From IMG/VR virus record IMGVR_UViG_2693429557_000011: 29,524 nucleotides of DNA, one strand, 5' to 3'. The notes beneath the pieces were generated by a model. That model was given only the letters and a program-made list of their open reading frames with translations, was not told where the DNA came from and did not search any database. Below are positions 10,821 to 19,319 of this stretch, piece by piece. Each line of letters opens with the position of its first letter. Position 1 is the first letter of the stretch. The DNA is from a virus (taxonomy: Duplodnaviria; Heunggongvirae; Uroviricota; Caudoviricetes). Made by a program: the position numbers and the translations under genes.

Positions 10821-11780
10821 ATGAAAATTTGTATCGACGACGGCTCCACCAACATCAAGCTGGCATGGACTGAGAACGGCGAACGCCGCAACGCCATCAG
10901 CCCGAACAGCTTCAAGTCGGAATGGTCTGCGCCGTTCGGTGGCATGCAGCCCGCGAACTACATGCTTGATGGCGTGCGCTATGGTTTTGATCCGGTCAGC
11001 GATCGCTTTGTCCAGACAACCGACACGCAATACCAGTACAGCGATGTAAATGTCATTGCCATTCATCACGCGCTGGTCAAATCAGGCATCACGCCACAGG
11101 AGGTGGATGTGGTTGTCACCCTGCCACTGAGCGAGTATTTCGACACAAACGCACAGCCGGACATGGCCAACATCAACCGCAAAAAAGCGAACGTTATGCG
11201 CCCGGTGGAGTACCAGAACGGCGAAGCATTCACTATCCGTAACGTGCGGGTTATGCCTGAATCCATTCCGGCTGGCTTTAAGGCACTGGCTGACATGAGT
11301 CCGTTTGAATCCCTGCTGATTGTGGATTTGGGCGGAACCACGCTGGATGTGGCAAAGGTTCAGGGGCAACTGGCAGGTATCAGCCAGGTGTTTTGCGATC
11401 CACACGTAGGCGTTTCTCTGATGGCCGATGCCGTACTGTCGGTGATGGCCACTAACGGTATGCGCACCAGTCACCACATCGCCAATACCATTATCGAACA
11501 TCGCCATGATGAAGCCTGGCTGCGCCAGCACATCCACAATGACGCGCATTACGCCAGCCTGATGGCGGTTATTCGTGAAAAGGAAGAAACACTGAAACAA
11601 CGCGTGATCCGCGCGCTGGCGGGTTTTTCGGGTTACGGGCGGGTGATGGTTGTCGGTGGAGGGGCGGAGATTGTGGCACCCGCTATCCGCGAAGCCTGCG
11701 GAGTTAATGCGACTTTCATCGCGGACGGGGTGCCACAGTTTGCTCTGGTTAATGGGCTGTACGCAATGGACAAGGAGTAA
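10821..11780 (+). CDS. parM: ParM/StbA-family actin-like segregation ATPase
   Basis: 319-aa ORF with N-terminal IDDGSTNIKL phosphate-1 motif, SPNSFK, YQYSDVNVIAIHHAL, PESIPAGF, LIVDLGGTTLD, VVGGGAE and a C-terminal LVNGLY; size and motif order match plasmid R1 ParM as recalled from memory. Confidence 0.8.
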   Translation: MKICIDDGSTNIKLAWTENGERRNAISPNSFKSEWSAPFGGMQPANYMLDGVRYGFDPVSDRFVQTTDTQYQYSDVNVIAIHHALVKSGITPQEVDVVVTLPLSEYFDTNAQPDMANINRKKANVMRPVEYQNGEAFTIRNVRVMPESIPAGFKALADMSPFESLLIVDLGGTTLDVAKVQGQLAGISQVFCDPHVGVSLMADAVLSVMATNGMRTSHHIANTIIEHRHDEAWLRQHIHNDAHYASLMAVIREKEETLKQRVIRALAGFSGYGRVMVVGGGAEIVAPAIREACGVNATFIADGVPQFALVNGLYAMDKE

Positions 11781-11784
11781 ACCA

Positions 11785-12096
11785 ATGACGACACCAACCA
11801 GACGGATAAGTTTCTATCTGAAGCCTGCGGCCGTCAAGAACGAAAGCGAAGCATGCGCCTGGCTGGGCAGCCTTACACCAGAAGCCCGCAAAAGCGGCCA
11901 ACGCGTGGCTTTTCTGGCCGGGCTGGCACTTCTGAAAATGAATCCAGCAGAGGCTTACCGACTGGCTGCATGGGCTGACGATGAGGCGTTATCGGTGACA
12001 CAAACCAGGACAGAACGCCCCGTGCCACAGCCAGTACCAACCGCACAGATAACCAGTCAGATAGCAGGGAATATCCGGGCATTATTTCCTGAATGA
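11785..12096 (+). CDS. parR: ParR-like centromere-binding adaptor (putative)
   Basis: 103 aa from the ATG 4 nt after the parM stop; RRISFYLKP and AFLAGLALL segments and a C-terminal IRALFP resemble R1 ParR (RRTIAFKLNP / ALTAGLAL / LRSLFP) as recalled. The longer upstream ORF start at 11650 lies inside parM and is rejected. Confidence 0.55.
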   Translation: MTTPTRRISFYLKPAAVKNESEACAWLGSLTPEARKSGQRVAFLAGLALLKMNPAEAYRLAAWADDEALSVTQTRTERPVPQPVPTAQITSQIAGNIRALFPE

Positions 12097-12156: not shown

Positions 12157-12681
12157 ATGAAAAAATACGAATACATGCTAATGAAAGAAGCACTGCGGGC
12201 TGGTCTGGCTCCCTGTCCTGTATCCGTAGAAGCTGTTGTTGGGAACACGATTTTCCGAACGCTGCGAAATCGCGTATCCGTGAAGATGGTTCACCAACCA
12301 CCCAAATCTACCAGCATGATCTATCTGCCGCTGCCCGAGGCTATCAAACTTATGCGTTCGCTGAAATTTGCGATTTGGATGCAGACACAAATCAACAAAG
12401 CGGTGCAAAACACCTTCGTTAAGAGACTAATACCGGAGCTTGCTGCCAGATGTGCAAAATGTACCAGACCCGCACTTCAATTTGATCTGTCATTGATTCA
12501 ACAAGCTACGGAGGCAGAACTGTACCGCCTGTCACCTATCCGTGATGCTCACACGGAAGCATCAGAAATGTTCCGGCTCATGTTTCAATTTAATTTTGCC
12601 GTTCGACGCACACGCGTTCAGGTCAATCGCATGATGCAGGAGCAGGAAGAGTTAACACAGTACAAAGGGGGCAGCCAGTGA
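12157..12681 (+). CDS. Hypothetical protein (174 aa), accessory locus
   Basis: ATG with an upstream GAGG; no family recognised; stop overlaps the GTG start of the next ORF. Confidence 0.5.
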   Translation: MKKYEYMLMKEALRAGLAPCPVSVEAVVGNTIFRTLRNRVSVKMVHQPPKSTSMIYLPLPEAIKLMRSLKFAIWMQTQINKAVQNTFVKRLIPELAARCAKCTRPALQFDLSLIQQATEAELYRLSPIRDAHTEASEMFRLMFQFNFAVRRTRVQVNRMMQEQEELTQYKGGSQ

Positions 12682-12917
12682 GTAATTCAGCACGACTACA
12701 GCTTGGTTTTTCACCGCTATCAAAAACCATCGTATTGGCAAAAATGCGTGACTTAGGAGACGGAACAAAACGCCGCGTAGGAAATGATCGCGGTCGCGAT
12801 GTAACCAACGAGGCCGCTCAACTCGTTTGGCATCTAGTCATGGCAGAAGGCGGTGAAATTAATTGGGAGCTGGATGATGGTTCTCGTATGATTTTGAGGG
12901 CCGAGAAGAGTAAATAG
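12678..12917 (+). CDS. Hypothetical protein (79 aa), translationally coupled to the 174-aa gene
   Basis: GTG start overlapping the upstream TGA (GTGA); acidic C-terminal half; no family recognised. Confidence 0.4.
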   Translation: MSNSARLQLGFSPLSKTIVLAKMRDLGDGTKRRVGNDRGRDVTNEAAQLVWHLVMAEGGEINWELDDGSRMILRAEKSK

Positions 12918-12931
12918 CTCAAGGGGGATTA

Positions 12932-13117
12932 ATGCTAAATGATGATGAAGAAGAGCTGCTTATGCAGGAATGGTCGCTCGGTGATTATGATAATGGTGAA
13001 AATGGGTGCCCGCATTGTGGCCGTTATCGTTTATGTATCTGCCAGAATGGAAAACACAGATGTGAAAAGTGCAATTGGTCTCCGGAACTTAATGACTACG
13101 TGCCGATCGAGTGGTAG
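12932..13117 (+). CDS. Small Cys-rich zinc-binding-like protein (61 aa)
   Basis: Six cysteines in CPHC-x5-CxC-x6-CxxC spacing and an acidic N-terminus; not similar to the Ogr zinc finger as recalled. Confidence 0.45.
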   Translation: MLNDDEEELLMQEWSLGDYDNGENGCPHCGRYRLCICQNGKHRCEKCNWSPELNDYVPIEW

Positions 13118-13608
13118 AGGTAAGTCACACTAGGTGTTTTTTAGTTGATTTTATAAATGCACAATAGTGCACAAATTTGCACAATTTTTTTGAACGACTT
13201 TTTGCCCTTCCGGCCCGCGTGGCGGCTGGATCCGTCAAGGATCCGTGCATGCACAAAAAAACGCGTTTTTTCTGCGCGCAGGTGACGGGGGAACAGCCCG
13301 CGTTTCAGGGGGTAAATAGCATTCCCTGAACGATGTCGCAGAGATACAACAGAATGGCTGTATTTCTCACGCTGAGCGTGAAAAAGACGTGAGGGCTTTT
13401 GATTTGATGGGGTGAAAGGTAAGGCCGTCAAAATCGCACTGAGACGGCGAGAATATGCAGTCAACGAGGTGGGATTGCGTAAGAGTCTGACTGTCGATGA
13501 TGGCAATCAGCAGGAAAGCGTCGTGAAATTATCTGACTGATACAGGAGCTGGAGAGTCGGGGCATAAATTTTTTATGCCCCGGCGAAGCAGCAGACAAGC
13601 GAAGCGCG
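13118..13608. other. Non-coding cos-proximal region downstream of Q (probable packaging/cos region) with phased repeats and a palindrome
   Basis: In P2 the cos site lies just beyond the 3-prime end of Q. Here TGCACAA occurs at 13158, 13168 and 13178 (10-bp phasing), GGATCCGT at 13228 and 13239, and an A7-CGCG-T6 palindrome at 13255-13271. No convincing ORF; the minus-strand ORF 13141-13506 lacks coding character. Confidence 0.4.
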
Positions 13609-14655
13609 TCAGGATGTGGGCTGGGTGTCTAACAGTGCGTAAGGGTTAAAGCGGATCACCTCTTCGCCAAGCCAGTCATTGATGTGCTTCATGGCCTCCA
13701 TGACGGGCATCAGCTCGTTAATTGCGTAAACCCGCGCGGCCTTCTCCACATCACCAAACGCACTTTTTTCGCCCGGCATCGCCCCCATCAGTTGCGGCGG
13801 AACGCGGTGCGCAGCCAGCACATCATCACGGGATGCCGCCTTAACATTCATGAACTCATCCTTTGCGGTGATCTGCTGGAACGGCAAAATTTGCACCCCC
13901 TCTTTGCCCCCGTTGGGCGCATGAATGAGCACGTTTTTAAACGCACCACCACCACGTGCCCCCTGTAGCGTTTCTTTCAGGGAGTCCATGCTTTCGCGGT
14001 TTACCTGCGCTGCACCGATGTAGATGATGCACCCGGCGTGGGATCCGTTGTCGTAGTACAGTTTTCTGAACATGTCCGCCGAATGAGAAAGGCTGGCCGA
14101 GAGTAATGCGCCAAGATATTCCGGCATGCCGTAGATTTCCTGGTTAATATCCGGATTCATCAGGTGGCACACTTTGCCAGGACGAAACTGAAACGCATCC
14201 TTGCCATCCTGCACATACCACCATGATTCAAGATCGCTTCCGCGTCGCATGTATTTCGCCAGGGCGTGCCGTAATTTAAGCGGTTCGCCGAGCATATTGC
14301 TCCGAAGCTCAAGGAATGCGTTACCGAACACAAACCAGTCCAGCGCCAGCGCCGAGAAATCCTGCCGGGAAAGCAGCGGGTGCGGAATATAGCAGCCGAG
14401 CAATACATTGCGCTTAAAGTAAAGCGCAGACTGATGCCAGGACGTTTGCCGGGCAGCTCTTGCCAGACCGTACCAGTCCACCGGGGTTTCATACCACCGC
14501 CCGTTATCAGCACAGTACATATTGTCCAGCAGGTCATGCCCGGTCAGGCGGTAAGGACCATCAAATGTGAATGCACTGAGCGACGATTCTTTCCTGAGCG
14601 CATCAGCGAGATCAATGCGTGAACTCATGCGCACTTTTTTATTTTTTCTGCTCAT
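13609..14655 (-). CDS. Q: Portal protein (P2 gpQ-like)
   Basis: 348-aa ORF, size and position as P2 Q, directly downstream of and overlapping the terminase gene on the same strand. Confidence 0.9.
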   Translation of the reverse strand: MSRKNKKVRMSSRIDLADALRKESSLSAFTFDGPYRLTGHDLLDNMYCADNGRWYETPVDWYGLARAARQTSWHQSALYFKRNVLLGCYIPHPLLSRQDFSALALDWFVFGNAFLELRSNMLGEPLKLRHALAKYMRRGSDLESWWYVQDGKDAFQFRPGKVCHLMNPDINQEIYGMPEYLGALLSASLSHSADMFRKLYYDNGSHAGCIIYIGAAQVNRESMDSLKETLQGARGGGAFKNVLIHAPNGGKEGVQILPFQQITAKDEFMNVKAASRDDVLAAHRVPPQLMGAMPGEKSAFGDVEKAARVYAINELMPVMEAMKHINDWLGEEVIRFNPYALLDTQPTS

Positions 14656-16406
14656 CAGAACTCCATAACCGTGAAACGCTCGTTTTCTCCTTCGCCGCCA
14701 ATCGGTTCGTTAATGACAGCAAGCATGGTTGCCCACGCAAGGTCGCCGTGGCTGATCCCCCTCGCGCGGTCCGTTTCGTAAGTGATAAAACCGCCCGGTG
14801 TTTTCACCTTACGCACGGCGTTAAAGGCCGCAACCAGCTCGCGTTCGGCGCGATCGTATTCCCACCGCCCGGCACGCATTATTTGCAGCATTTTCAGTAC
14901 CAGCGACCGTTTTGATGACAGCGTGAAGGTGTAAGGGATGGCGGCGGGAAAAAACCGTTTCACTATCTGATAGACGGCATCCCCGTGCCCGCCCGTCGCA
15001 TCAATGCCGATGTGTTCCACGTTGTAGCGATACGTGAACTCTTCAATAACTCTGGCCTGCTCTTCAAATTCCAGCCCCTGAACGCGTCGCGTCTCCACCG
15101 TTCTGAAACGACCACCAGGAACAGCCGGAGGAACCACCACGGACACAGCGCCGCTGTCGCCGTTACCACTGCTGCCGTTTGCGTCATACCCAATCCATAC
15201 CGGACGATTCCCCATCGGGCGGGGGGCAAAGGGTTTCCAGTCTTTCCAGTCGTCGTATCCGTCAACACCGCAGCCAATCAGGATATTCAGGTTAAATGCC
15301 GATTCCCCTTCGCGGACAAACTCACACATATAGAGATTGCGGAACTCGTCTTCGGTGTTTTCATCACGAATTTCATCAATATCGGTGTGTTTCCAGCCGT
15401 GATTAACCACATCTTCCAGCGTGACAATTTGCCGCCACGTCCGGTCAGGGCAGATAAGCCCGTTATGCAGCGTTTTCCAGTCCACAGAAAAACGCTGGCG
15501 TTTATGCGCGGCCTTTTTCTCGTTCCAGCGGTCGCCGTTCCAGTAGGCGTATGCCTCGTGCGTTTCGGTGGATGGCGTGGAGAAGCAGGTGCGCCGCAGT
15601 CCGCTGAGGGTTGCCATAGCGCCAGCCACCTTGCGCAGTTCAGCAAAGCGACTGACCCAGAAAAATTCATCAAAATAAAAATTGCCCGTGTAAGATTGCG
15701 CCGTCGCAGCAGAAGTGCCGAGAAAATGCATCTCTGCGCCGTTGGAGAGGATGATTTTATCGCCCCCTTTCAGCTCCACATCGACTTCAGCCGCGGCCTT
15801 CTGAATAATGCTTTTAAACTGGAACGCCTGACGACGCGACGCAGACAAAAAAATCTGGTTACGCTGGTAAGGTTGTGCCACATCGTCACGCAGCGCCATC
15901 AGCAGTGCTTCCTGTGCAAAATACCAGGTCGCCCCAATCTGTCGGGATTTCAGGATCATCCTGTTACGTATCCCGGCTTCCCTGCAAAGCGTCAGGGAGT
16001 CAAACCAGCCCCGCTGATGCCACTCCAGCCTGCTGATGATTTTTTCCCGCAGTGCGGCAATCTGTTCCGGCGTGAAATGATTTTTGAGTTTTTTCGCCCG
16101 GCCTTTCTTTCCTGTGGCCGTCGCATCCGGCTGGCCATCATGCAGTTTTTTAAGCTGCCGGGTCAGCAGGTCTATTTCCTTAAAGTCACCACCTGTTTTA
16201 TTCTGTTTTTCAGTAAGCTGGATGAGGCGCGCATCGATGGACTGCGTGACACGCTGCACGGGTGGCGTTTCATCCCACTGGTCGCGTTTTTTCCACGCAT
16301 AAATCGTGTTCGGGTTTATTCCCATCAGACGTGATATTTCTGCGGGCGGATAACCCTGCCAGTAAAGTTGCCGCGCACGCTGGCGCACAAAAGCGTCCTG
16401 AATCAT
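14655..16406 (-). CDS. P: Terminase large (ATPase) subunit (P2 gpP-like)
   Basis: 583-aa ORF divergent from the capsid operon, as P is from O in P2; size close to P2 gpP. Confidence 0.9.
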   Translation of the reverse strand: MIQDAFVRQRARQLYWQGYPPAEISRLMGINPNTIYAWKKRDQWDETPPVQRVTQSIDARLIQLTEKQNKTGGDFKEIDLLTRQLKKLHDGQPDATATGKKGRAKKLKNHFTPEQIAALREKIISRLEWHQRGWFDSLTLCREAGIRNRMILKSRQIGATWYFAQEALLMALRDDVAQPYQRNQIFLSASRRQAFQFKSIIQKAAAEVDVELKGGDKIILSNGAEMHFLGTSAATAQSYTGNFYFDEFFWVSRFAELRKVAGAMATLSGLRRTCFSTPSTETHEAYAYWNGDRWNEKKAAHKRQRFSVDWKTLHNGLICPDRTWRQIVTLEDVVNHGWKHTDIDEIRDENTEDEFRNLYMCEFVREGESAFNLNILIGCGVDGYDDWKDWKPFAPRPMGNRPVWIGYDANGSSGNGDSGAVSVVVPPAVPGGRFRTVETRRVQGLEFEEQARVIEEFTYRYNVEHIGIDATGGHGDAVYQIVKRFFPAAIPYTFTLSSKRSLVLKMLQIMRAGRWEYDRAERELVAAFNAVRKVKTPGGFITYETDRARGISHGDLAWATMLAVINEPIGGEGENERFTVMEF

Positions 16407-18518: not shown

Positions 18519-19319
18519 ATGATTACTCCTGCACAGCAACACTGGCAGAACGTGATGGCACAGCGCGCAGGCCGGGCGAATGAAGGTGTGGACCACGCCG
18601 CGCGTACCGCGCATGAAGAGGTGCTGTATCGTCTGCGTCTGGCACAGGCCCGGCTTAAGGGCGTACAGGCCAGAAGCGCGAAAGCCGACATCAAAAAAGC
18701 GTTGTTGCCGGACTTTTCCGGCTGGATTGAGGGAACGCTGGAGGCTGACGGCGGGCAACAGGACGAAGTGATTGCCACGCTGATGGTGTGGGCGATTGAC
18801 TGCGGCGATCTTCCGCTTGCGCTGCGTATTGGTGCGTATGCGGTCCGTCACAACCTCATCATGCCGGATAACTTTGGCCGTACTGCTGCCACAGTGCTGA
18901 CCGAAGAAATCTGCAATCCGGTACTGACGCAGGCCGGGACGGATGCCGACGCGGATTTGTCCGTCTTTATCGAACCACTGGACACACTTTGGGAAATTGT
19001 CGCCAACCAGGATATGCCGGACGAAGTGCGCGCCAAATTATGCAAGGCGTGCGCCTTTGCCCGCCGTGGCCTGAGCGATGCGGACAGCATGGCCTCATCA
19101 CTGAAGCTGCTGCGCGAAGCGATGCATCTGAACCAGAACGCAGGTGTGAAACGCGAGATTGCAACCCTTTCCCGCGCCCTGAAAAAAGCCGATTCCGCAG
19201 CCGCACCAGAAGACGCCAGCGCACAGCAGGCGCAGGACGAAAGCAGCGAAAGTAAAAAGACAACGCGGAAGCCTGCAACACGAAAAACCACCGCGACGCA
19301 GAAGGCGAAGCGCGGTTAA
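18519..19319 (+). CDS. M: Terminase small/endonuclease subunit (P2 gpM-like)
   Basis: 266-aa ORF with TADMPDEVRAKL-like segment (here NQDMPDEVRAKL) and a basic Lys/Arg-rich C-terminal tail as in P2 M. Confidence 0.85.
   Translation: MITPAQQHWQNVMAQRAGRANEGVDHAARTAHEEVLYRLRLAQARLKGVQARSAKADIKKALLPDFSGWIEGTLEADGGQQDEVIATLMVWAIDCGDLPLALRIGAYAVRHNLIMPDNFGRTAATVLTEEICNPVLTQAGTDADADLSVFIEPLDTLWEIVANQDMPDEVRAKLCKACAFARRGLSDADSMASSLKLLREAMHLNQNAGVKREIATLSRALKKADSAAAPEDASAQQAQDESSESKKTTRKPATRKTTATQKAKRG

Follow-up and report, generated by a model that had tools for sequence, protein, structure and literature searches.

What lies in the non-coding gap between the accessory genes at the right end of a P2-family prophage and its portal gene Q? 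The question is raised by positions 13118 to 13608 of IMGVR_UViG_2693429557_000011, a stretch of 29,524 nucleotides from a virus of the Caudoviricetes (the whole stretch is hereafter called the window), whose prophage is of the P88 / Xuanwuvirus type and has P88-like Peduoviridae as its closest phages by BLAST. As judged from homology, the segment from 13158 to about 13312 is the cos (cohesive-end, packaging) site of this P88-like P2-family prophage; it is an ordinary cos site of known kind, and the basic picture is left unchanged. The reading favored here, at a probability of roughly 0.6, is that in this P88-like cos site four copies of the heptamer TGCACAA, three in a distal array and one proximal to the cleavage site, are recognized by the terminase, with A and T tracts aiding a bend in the DNA. 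The element was found in 1142 of 5426 complete E. coli genomes, and it carries no annotation in any record listed.

The predicted cleavage site

Regarding the cohesive ends, two features mark their position:

13281 to 13299, plus strand: cosN, the predicted 19-nucleotide cohesive-end sequence GGTGACGGGGGAACAGCCC, placed by homology to the mapped ends of P2, 186 and P4.
13300 to 13312: right core flank, GCG...GGGGG, conserved family-wide.

By this homology, the top strand should be nicked just before 13281 and the bottom strand just after 13299. The 19-mer is identical at 13 of 19 positions to the annotated P2 end (cosL), GGCGAGGCGGGGAAAGCAC, and it resembles the mapped cohesive end of the Ralstonia phage RSA1 (phiRSA1), GGTGAGGCGGGGTCCAAC (PMC5694545). 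Relatives were gathered without a motif as reference, using the Q protein as query and one genome per species; about 40 loci found in this way, from many genera of the Enterobacterales (Citrobacter, Edwardsiella, Serratia, Kosakonia, Brenneria, Pantoea, Klebsiella, Morganella and others), have their elements in a common order, namely TGCACAAAAA, a spacer of 14-16 nucleotides, GCGCGCA, the 19-mer, CGC and a G run. The 19-mer of these relatives is either of the window type or GGCGAGGCGGGGGAGCAAG, at the same position; more than 200 further loci on viral contigs agree with this order. In more than 100 loci cosN is conserved and its distance to the motifs on either side does not change. In the relatives, GCGCGCA to the left of cosN and CGCGCGC to its right make a two-fold symmetric flank, and family-wide conservation ends about 30 bp into the right side.

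As for the core of the site, P2 and P4 have one of about 55 bp in common around their 19-nucleotide 5' cohesive ends (Ziermann and Calendar 1990, as cited in PMC9122126, PMC5694545 and PMC9594776), and the cos literature speaks of "a 55-bp core" plus flanks that improve packaging. The features of this core are found in the window: TGCAY, with a run of A, stands about 30 bp left of the predicted ends, and GC-rich sequence covers the expected nicks and reaches just past them; the proximal heptamer, the spacer, the 19-mer and the CGC flank correspond to the published core, and the distal array lies outside it.

The cos region has the accessory genes of the right end on one side and the 3' end of Q on the other, the terminase gene P following beyond Q, and the cognate terminase genes are of the P2 type, with a Terminase_5 N-terminal domain in gpP and a gpM of family PF05944:

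13609 to 14655, minus strand: portal gene Q (PF04860).
14655 to 16406, minus strand: large terminase gpP (Terminase_5, HTH_23, Terminase_6N/6C).
18519 to 19319, plus strand: homologue of the small terminase gpM (PF05944; 36% identity to P2 gpM).

An initial annotation of this DNA, made from the letters alone, had expected a P2-type cos just beyond Q, and the expectation is borne out by the adjoining Q and P genes, by the match of the 19-mer to the P2 end and by the order of elements common to the relatives.

One viral locus, IMGVR_UViG_2681813261_000011 (L130), has the left side of cosN replaced by what we take to be an IS1 end (...GTCATTACC), which stops 2 bp short of GGTGACGG. An insertion of IS1 seems to have parted cosN from the recognition elements, and the prophage is therefore presumably packaging-defective.

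The heptamer array and its conservation

To the left of cosN, the features are, in order:

13118 to 13157: variable junction between the last cargo open reading frame (ORF; stop at 13117) and the conserved cos, with information near zero among 49 relatives.
13158 to 13184, plus strand: distal array of three TGCACAA in 10-bp phase, at -123, -113 and -103 from cosN; candidate terminase recognition site.
13185 to 13191, plus strand: T7 tract directly after the array, of high information and kept in TGCACAA-type relatives; it may be an intrinsic bend.
13204 to 13227: GC-rich segment, partly conserved; relatives have a GC-rich dyad here, e.g., CGCCAG-NN-CTGGCG.
13228 to 13235, plus strand: first GGATCCGT copy, lineage-specific and of low information.
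13239 to 13246, plus strand: second GGATCCGT copy, whose GGATC (a Dam GATC site) is moderately conserved.
13250 to 13259, plus strand: proximal heptamer with its A tract, TGCACAAAAA, at -31; left edge of the P2-type core, of near-maximal information.
13256 to 13271: perfect 16-nucleotide palindrome, AAAAAACG/CGTTTTTT, in the core spacer; its symmetry is not conserved, and its A and T tracts may bend DNA.
13272 to 13280: CTGCGCGCA flank abutting the predicted top-strand nick site, of high information.

The TGCACAA copies at 13158, 13168 and 13178, with a step of exactly 10 bp, and the GGATCCGT copies at 13228 and 13239, offset by 11 bp, are present as the initial annotation had reported them; its list of three heptamers was correct and lacked the fourth TGCACAA at 13250-13256, on the same strand as the triplet, and cosN at 13281-13299. 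The string that it had called a perfect palindrome, AAAAAAACGCGTTTTTT, does occur at 13255-13271 (17 nucleotides), but the perfect palindrome is only 16 nucleotides long, 13256-13271, because the longer string has 7 A but 6 T. As for the region being "highly structured", the description suits the RNA fold of 13301-13608, treated below, but not the single-stranded DNA of 13118-13300, whose predicted stability is like that of shuffled sequences (z = -0.73).

TGCACAA is not enriched in the window overall (9 copies for 8.1 expected); four of these nine copies fall inside 99 bp on one strand, and the arrangement TGCACAA-N3-TGCACAA-N3-TGCACAA, with up to 3 mismatches, occurred in 0 of 100 shuffles. 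The status of the doublet and of the palindrome rests instead on conservation counts, not on shuffles.

Conservation was profiled as information content over 49 cos regions that are mutually less than 90% identical and include P2, 186 and P4. Within 13158-13191 the profile is high at heptamers 2 and 3 and at the T7 tract, and moderate at heptamer 1; it is high in parts of the GC-rich segment, moderate at GGATC (13239-13243), near maximal at TGCACAAAAA (13250-13259), and high at CGCGCGCA (13273-13280), cosN, CGC (13301-13303) and GGGGG (13308-13312). Low values are found at 13118-13157, at the first GGATCCGT and at the palindrome center. The fourth heptamer, at 13250, is the most conserved element outside cosN, and the proximal copy is present in 48 of these 49 sequences; at least two exact TGCA[CT] copies occur in the distal zone of 40 of them, compared with 12 copies in 4998 positions outside both zones. 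The distance from the last distal copy to the proximal one is 72 bp in 42 of 47 sequences.

A second set of 120 distinct sequences, 53 P88-like and 67 others, separates what is specific to the lineage from what is general. The exact TGCACAA triplet is found in 44 of the 53 and in 25 of the 67, the remainder being mostly degenerate, and by these counts the triplet did not arise as a chance repeat but is a genuine part of cos with wide conservation; the initial annotation had made its proposal of binding sites depend on such conservation, which extends to relatives of many genera. The other two motifs that it had singled out fare differently as conserved elements. Two GGATCCGT copies are confined to P88-like sequences (50/53 vs 0/67) and only the GGATC of the second copy is wider, since GGATC at -50 to -35 occurs in 53/53 and 34/67; judged in this way, the doublet elaborates, in this lineage only, on one conserved GGATC. 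The perfect 16-nucleotide palindrome is present in only 24/53 P88-like sequences and in 0/67 others, and its symmetry is, on the same evidence, incidental: it occupies the spacer that separates the -31 heptamer from the CGCGCGCA flank, where conservation is weak.

The same spaced arrangement is found, with TGCAT, in well-known members of the family:

P2: distal TGCAT at -123, -111 and -101; proximal copy at -29.
186: distal TGCAT at -124, -111 and -101; proximal copy at -29.
P4: distal TGCAT at -124, -111 and -101; proximal copy at -29.
PSP3: distal TGCAT at -120, -111 and -101; proximal copy at -29.
phiRSA1: distal TGCAT at -129, -110 and -100; proximal copy at -29.

The proximal copy at -29 reads TGCATTAAAACC in P2, 186, P4 and phiRSA1. 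No description of a function for this spaced heptamer architecture was found in the literature searched, which did not include Ziermann and Calendar (1990).

A variation on the theme occurs in the viral loci L193-L217, which have a GGCGAGGCGGGGGAGCAAG-type cos: in many of them the proximal heptamer is doubled, cTGCACaaagTGCACaaaaag, its copies standing at -39 and -29 with a step of 10 bp, and the first distal copy is degenerate (TGCAAAA) in most loci with the doubled proximal heptamer.

Proposed recognition of the site and alternative readings

The analysis shows which kind of site this is, where cosN falls by homology, and how the motifs are conserved and spaced, whereas the binder of the heptamers, the bending of the DNA and the cleavage itself are inferred. 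In the proposed mechanism, the terminase (gpP plus gpM) would nick both strands 19 nucleotides apart at 13281-13299, giving virions the predicted 5' cohesive ends. Recognition would go through four TGCACAA on the same strand, one at -31 within the core of about 55 bp and three phased at -123, -113 and -103, with a fixed 72 bp between the last distal copy and the proximal one. The three copies in 10-bp phase lie on one helix face, and the constant 72-bp arm together with the A/T tracts suggests a bent or looped complex: the T7 (13185-13191), A7 (13255-13261) and T6 (13266-13271) tracts would help to bend the arm, and array and proximal site would hold one terminase assembly over cosN. As the outermost required element, the array would therefore also be the fixed boundary where exchangeable cargo begins.

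As for the reader, the heptamers are most likely terminase recognition sites, probably bound by a terminase helix-turn-helix, for which the N-terminal domain of gpP would be the best candidate and gpM an alternative:

Residues 6 to 63 of gpP, nucleotides 16218 to 16391, minus strand: N-terminal helix-turn-helix (Terminase_5 / HTH_23), candidate heptamer reader.

The comparison of readers in relatives covered gpP, gpM being compared with that of P2 alone; a sequence search of the PDB with gpP and gpM gave no useful relative. Among TGCACAA-type loci, residues 1-65 of gpP are 78-91% identical to those of the window, vs 65-78% for the rest of the protein, and the loci compared have two different cosN sequences. 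Over the same residues, the gpP of the window shares only 40% identity with those of P2 and 186, phages whose motif is TGCAT. In P2, 186 and RSA1 the putative recognition helix reads xK(R/P)xTV(Q/H)SWK, and in the TGCACAA group IN(P/Q)NTIYAWK; the type of helix-turn-helix would track the type of heptamer, a correlation that is suggestive only.

A broader proposal is held tentatively, at less than even odds: that the phased TGCAY array with the proximal copy exactly 72 bp away is an uncharacterised, family-wide equivalent of cosB, placed across cosN from where lambda has its cosB, that its reader is the N-terminal helix-turn-helix of gpP and not the small subunit, that the motif variant (TGCACAA or TGCAT) sets packaging specificity among co-resident P2-family phages and their satellites, and that the array fixes the junction where anti-phage cargo is exchanged.

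Terminase recognition has to be weighed against readings in which the array serves other partners. The heptamers and A/T tracts might be sites for host nucleoid proteins (IHF, HU, Fis or similar) that bend cos in the way IHF bends lambda cosB at I1, the terminase reading only the core next to cosN. A/T tracts do flank the heptamers, the record of phage phiCTX annotates an IHF site and repeats R3-R6 near its cos, and conservation from Escherichia to Ralstonia would suit a conserved host protein. Nevertheless, the IHF consensus WATCAANNNNTTR has no match with at most one mismatch in 13118-13608, to our knowledge no host-factor consensus matches TGCACAA, and in the same host, E. coli, the motif differs by phage lineage, being TGCAT in P2 and 186 and TGCACAA in P88-like phages. 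A motif that differs between phages of one host fits a phage-encoded reader better than a host factor, and the host-protein reading is considered unlikely. It is quite improbable, too, that the array is conserved only as a recombination boundary of the cargo hotspot, whether as a target of the exchange machinery or as the mere limit of common homology, devoid of any packaging role. Homology among relatives does start exactly at heptamer 1, with unrelated cargo to its left, and a hotspot beside cos is documented, with recombination at cos proposed (PMC9122126); such a role, however, leaves the fixed 72-bp spacing to the proximal copy unexplained. Moreover, the hotspot of P4 lies between cos and int, on the other side of cosN (PMC9122126), and yet P4 keeps its array between psu and cosN at the same distances, which is the strongest argument that the array belongs to the packaging signal.

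A terminator scan flags GTGCA-CAAATT-TGCAC followed by AATTTTTTTG, which raises the possibility that heptamers 2 and 3 and the T7 tract form an intrinsic terminator of low strength, or an insulator, that stops read-through from the rightward cargo genes into cos. The cargo ORFs do read toward this hairpin, and the T tract is conserved in TGCACAA-type relatives. The stem, however, has only 5 bp, and at -6.1 kcal/mol (z = -0.39) it is no better than shuffles; the hairpin is automatic, because direct repeats with a palindromic TGCA core will form it. Furthermore, P2 and 186 keep the repeats without a T tract and P4 has only T4 after the third copy, 186 has a separate annotated terminator upstream of the array, and several other relatives have, by eye, a hairpin and T-run upstream of theirs. 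A terminator is, accordingly, very unlikely to be what the array is kept for. Finally, a parC (ParMRC) centromere was considered for the array and rejected: the distance from array to cosN is the same in P2, 186, P4 and many relatives, in which no parM/parR module was seen and whose cos-adjacent cargo is unrelated.

Recognition by the terminase is the preferred reading, and several facts weigh against it. Copy 1 is the least conserved of the three in the array, and among the 49 loci of the profile one has no exact distal copy and eight have a single one. The link between helix-turn-helix and heptamer draws on two or three clades and is confounded by phylogeny. No satellite with a TGCACAA-type cos was found among 219 viral loci and the E. 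coli genomes to replicate the P2/P4 argument; this screen looked for P4 psu in the first 120 viral loci and for psu, sid, delta and alpha in the other 99, and in E. coli the cos core, with 1256 places, is not more frequent than the whole region, with 1308. As for the ends, the nick positions in this lineage come from homology only; among deposited phage records searched with three cos types, none starts, ends or is annotated at cosN, and the linear record of P88_4B11 (NC_049391) is cut at a point equivalent to 13202/13203 of the window, 78 bp left of cosN. The T-rich stretch that follows the array lies on one side of this break and the GC-rich segment on the other; the break is probably arbitrary.

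The boundary with the accessory cargo

BLAST homology to phages and to E. coli genomes begins at 13155-13158, and in alignments anchored at cosN the loci have unrelated sequence immediately left of heptamer 1; therefore, the array is the outer edge of the conserved cos and its junction with exchangeable cargo. Among E. coli records, 1013 of 1108 have 95-99% identity over the 171-bp cos part, vs 590 of 1143 over the whole 491-bp region, so that the cos part is the more conserved of the two. P2-like phages have a cos-adjacent accessory (anti-phage) hotspot between gpA and gpQ (Rousset et al. 2022, PMC9122126), whose cargo ends at cos, and the cargo of the window is in the same position; placing the junction at the first heptamer is the contribution of this analysis.

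The small cargo ORFs of the window read toward the cos region, the last one ending at 13117. Despite the known anti-phage role of the hotspot, a comparison of these ORFs with PADLOC gave no match; the 61-residue ORF has a weak, sub-threshold match to a zinc ribbon (phrog_24897). The neighbors on this side are:

12157 to 13117: cargo adjoining cos, with a 174-residue ORF lacking a Pfam match, a DUF7446 protein of 79 residues and a 61-residue ORF.
10821 to 12096: ParM-like actin (319 residues) and a partition protein (phrog_2515), between the replication gene and the cargo.

The parM/partition pair is also present in P88 and phiSM, and it is unusual for an integrating P2-like phage.

In P2 (2425-2480 of locus L002, 33424-33479 of the record), the first distal TGCAT is found where the -35 of the leftward old/tin promoter is expected, and the annotated old/tin transcripts start at 33424 and 33426; in this phage, then, array and cargo promoter may overlap.

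The spacer between cos and Q

Past the core, 13300-13608 has a different character, with two features:

13313 to 13557: lineage-specific non-coding spacer from cos to Q, unrelated in other lineages and tolerant of insertions.
13558 to 13582, minus strand: perfect 11-bp inverted repeat, 26 nucleotides past the Q stop, at the position of the P2 terminator tQ; invariant in 62 distinct relatives.

The initial annotation had suggested a promoter or a small RNA for the accessory locus. In favor of a small RNA, a small protein or a promoter being encoded here, the RNA fold of 13301-13608 beats shuffles on both strands (z = -5.2 on the plus strand and -3.7 on the minus strand), and P88 and P88_4B11 annotate small hypothetical ORFs in the spacer. 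On the other hand, a promoter scan found no promoter-like site in 13118-13608, and the accessory genes read toward the region; Rfam, at a permissive E-value, returned no family at threshold, only gyrA RNA with 22.2 bits vs a threshold of 45, on the hairpin 13558-13582. The spacer is, moreover, unrelated in sequence in other lineages and broken by insertions in relatives, and we regard any such encoded function as barely credible. The small ORFs were rejected as genes, since the 62 distinct relatives have no third-position bias: over codon positions 1, 2 and 3, variable sites number 22, 19 and 16 in ORF 13412-13540, and 18, 13 and 18 in ORF 13461-13598. RNAalifold, run on the 62 sequences and both strands, was uninformative because the relatives are 90-99% identical and have almost no compensatory changes.

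The inverted repeat folds at -17.8 kcal/mol (z = -4.8 alone) and recurs in the predicted RNA structures, and it has no U tract on either strand; if it is the terminator of the P-Q operon, it is an atypical one. Indeed, the usual combination of an intrinsic terminator, a stable GC-rich stem plus a U tract, is found neither here nor in the heptamer hairpin.

Some P88-like relatives (among them L098 and L075) have about 570-620 bp of extra sequence, inserted at about 13536/46 and about 13612/34, and in L075 it holds a 174-residue ORF on the plus strand; cos thus has a second, small slot for cargo, on the side that faces Q. ORFs between cosL and Q, resembling this slot, have been reported in phiRSY1 (PMC5694545).

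Implications

The predicted cosN at 13281-13299 and the outer edge at 13158 give a base-level landmark for the annotation of P88-like prophages, and they also delimit the cos-adjacent cargo hotspot. Cosmid systems based on P2/P4 serve for antimicrobial delivery, and longer cos flanks are reported to raise transduction about 10^4-fold (PMC9594776); the distal array is an obvious candidate for this effect of the flanks. If it is true that the heptamer variant sets packaging specificity, it predicts which helpers mobilize which satellites.

Comparison with other cos systems

In phage lambda, cos consists of cosQ, cosN and cosB, the last with the gpNu1 sites R3, R2 and R1 and the IHF site I1, and cosB lies between cosN and the terminase gene Nu1, at the end that is packaged first. 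The site in the window follows a lambda-like logic, having a nicking site of partial two-fold symmetry, a repeat array within about 120 bp and sequences that favor bending. Its motifs, however, are unrelated to those of lambda and it has no IHF consensus; the candidate reader may be a helix-turn-helix on the large subunit instead of the small one; and, unlike lambda cosB, the array flanks cosN on the side of the cargo, away from the head and terminase genes such as Q and P, at the right end of the genome.

Regarding the Pseudomonas phage phiCTX (NC_003278), its P2-family cos is flanked by the annotated repeats R3-R6 and an IHF site; it has GTGCAGAAAAAG at -33 and further GCAGAAA copies upstream, and its repeat sequences differ from those of the window. 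The R3 repeats (AATTACCTTTC) are 180-370 bp from cos, and we suspect that they belong to the integration site. Among more distant Q homologues, from Shewanella, Pseudoalteromonas, Colwellia and Porphyrobacter, simple scans gave no recognizable cos or phased array.

The closest comparison is with P2, 186 and P4, from which the window differs in several details. Its heptamer is TGCACAA, theirs is (T/G)TGCAT; its array is spaced by 10/10 bp, theirs by 12-13/10 bp; the T7 tract after its array is absent in P2 and 186, and P4 has only a T4 run. Its cosN differs from that of P2 at 6 of 19 positions, and where its spacer has an A/T palindrome, P2 has a GC hairpin, CCGCCC-N8-GGGCGG. The ends of P2, 186 and P4 have been mapped, whereas those of this lineage are predicted from sequence. 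All share the location between the accessory right end and the 3' end of Q, a G-rich 19-mer with GC-rich sequence at the nick, and P2-type gpP and gpM. In all, one TGCAY, accompanied by a run of A, stands about 30 bp left of the ends and three more stand about 100-124 bp left of them, the last of these distal copies being 72 bp from the proximal one. P4 is reported to have only the cos region in common with P2 (PMC9122126), and the element of wider interest is this strictly spaced heptamer architecture, common to the phage family and to its satellite P4.

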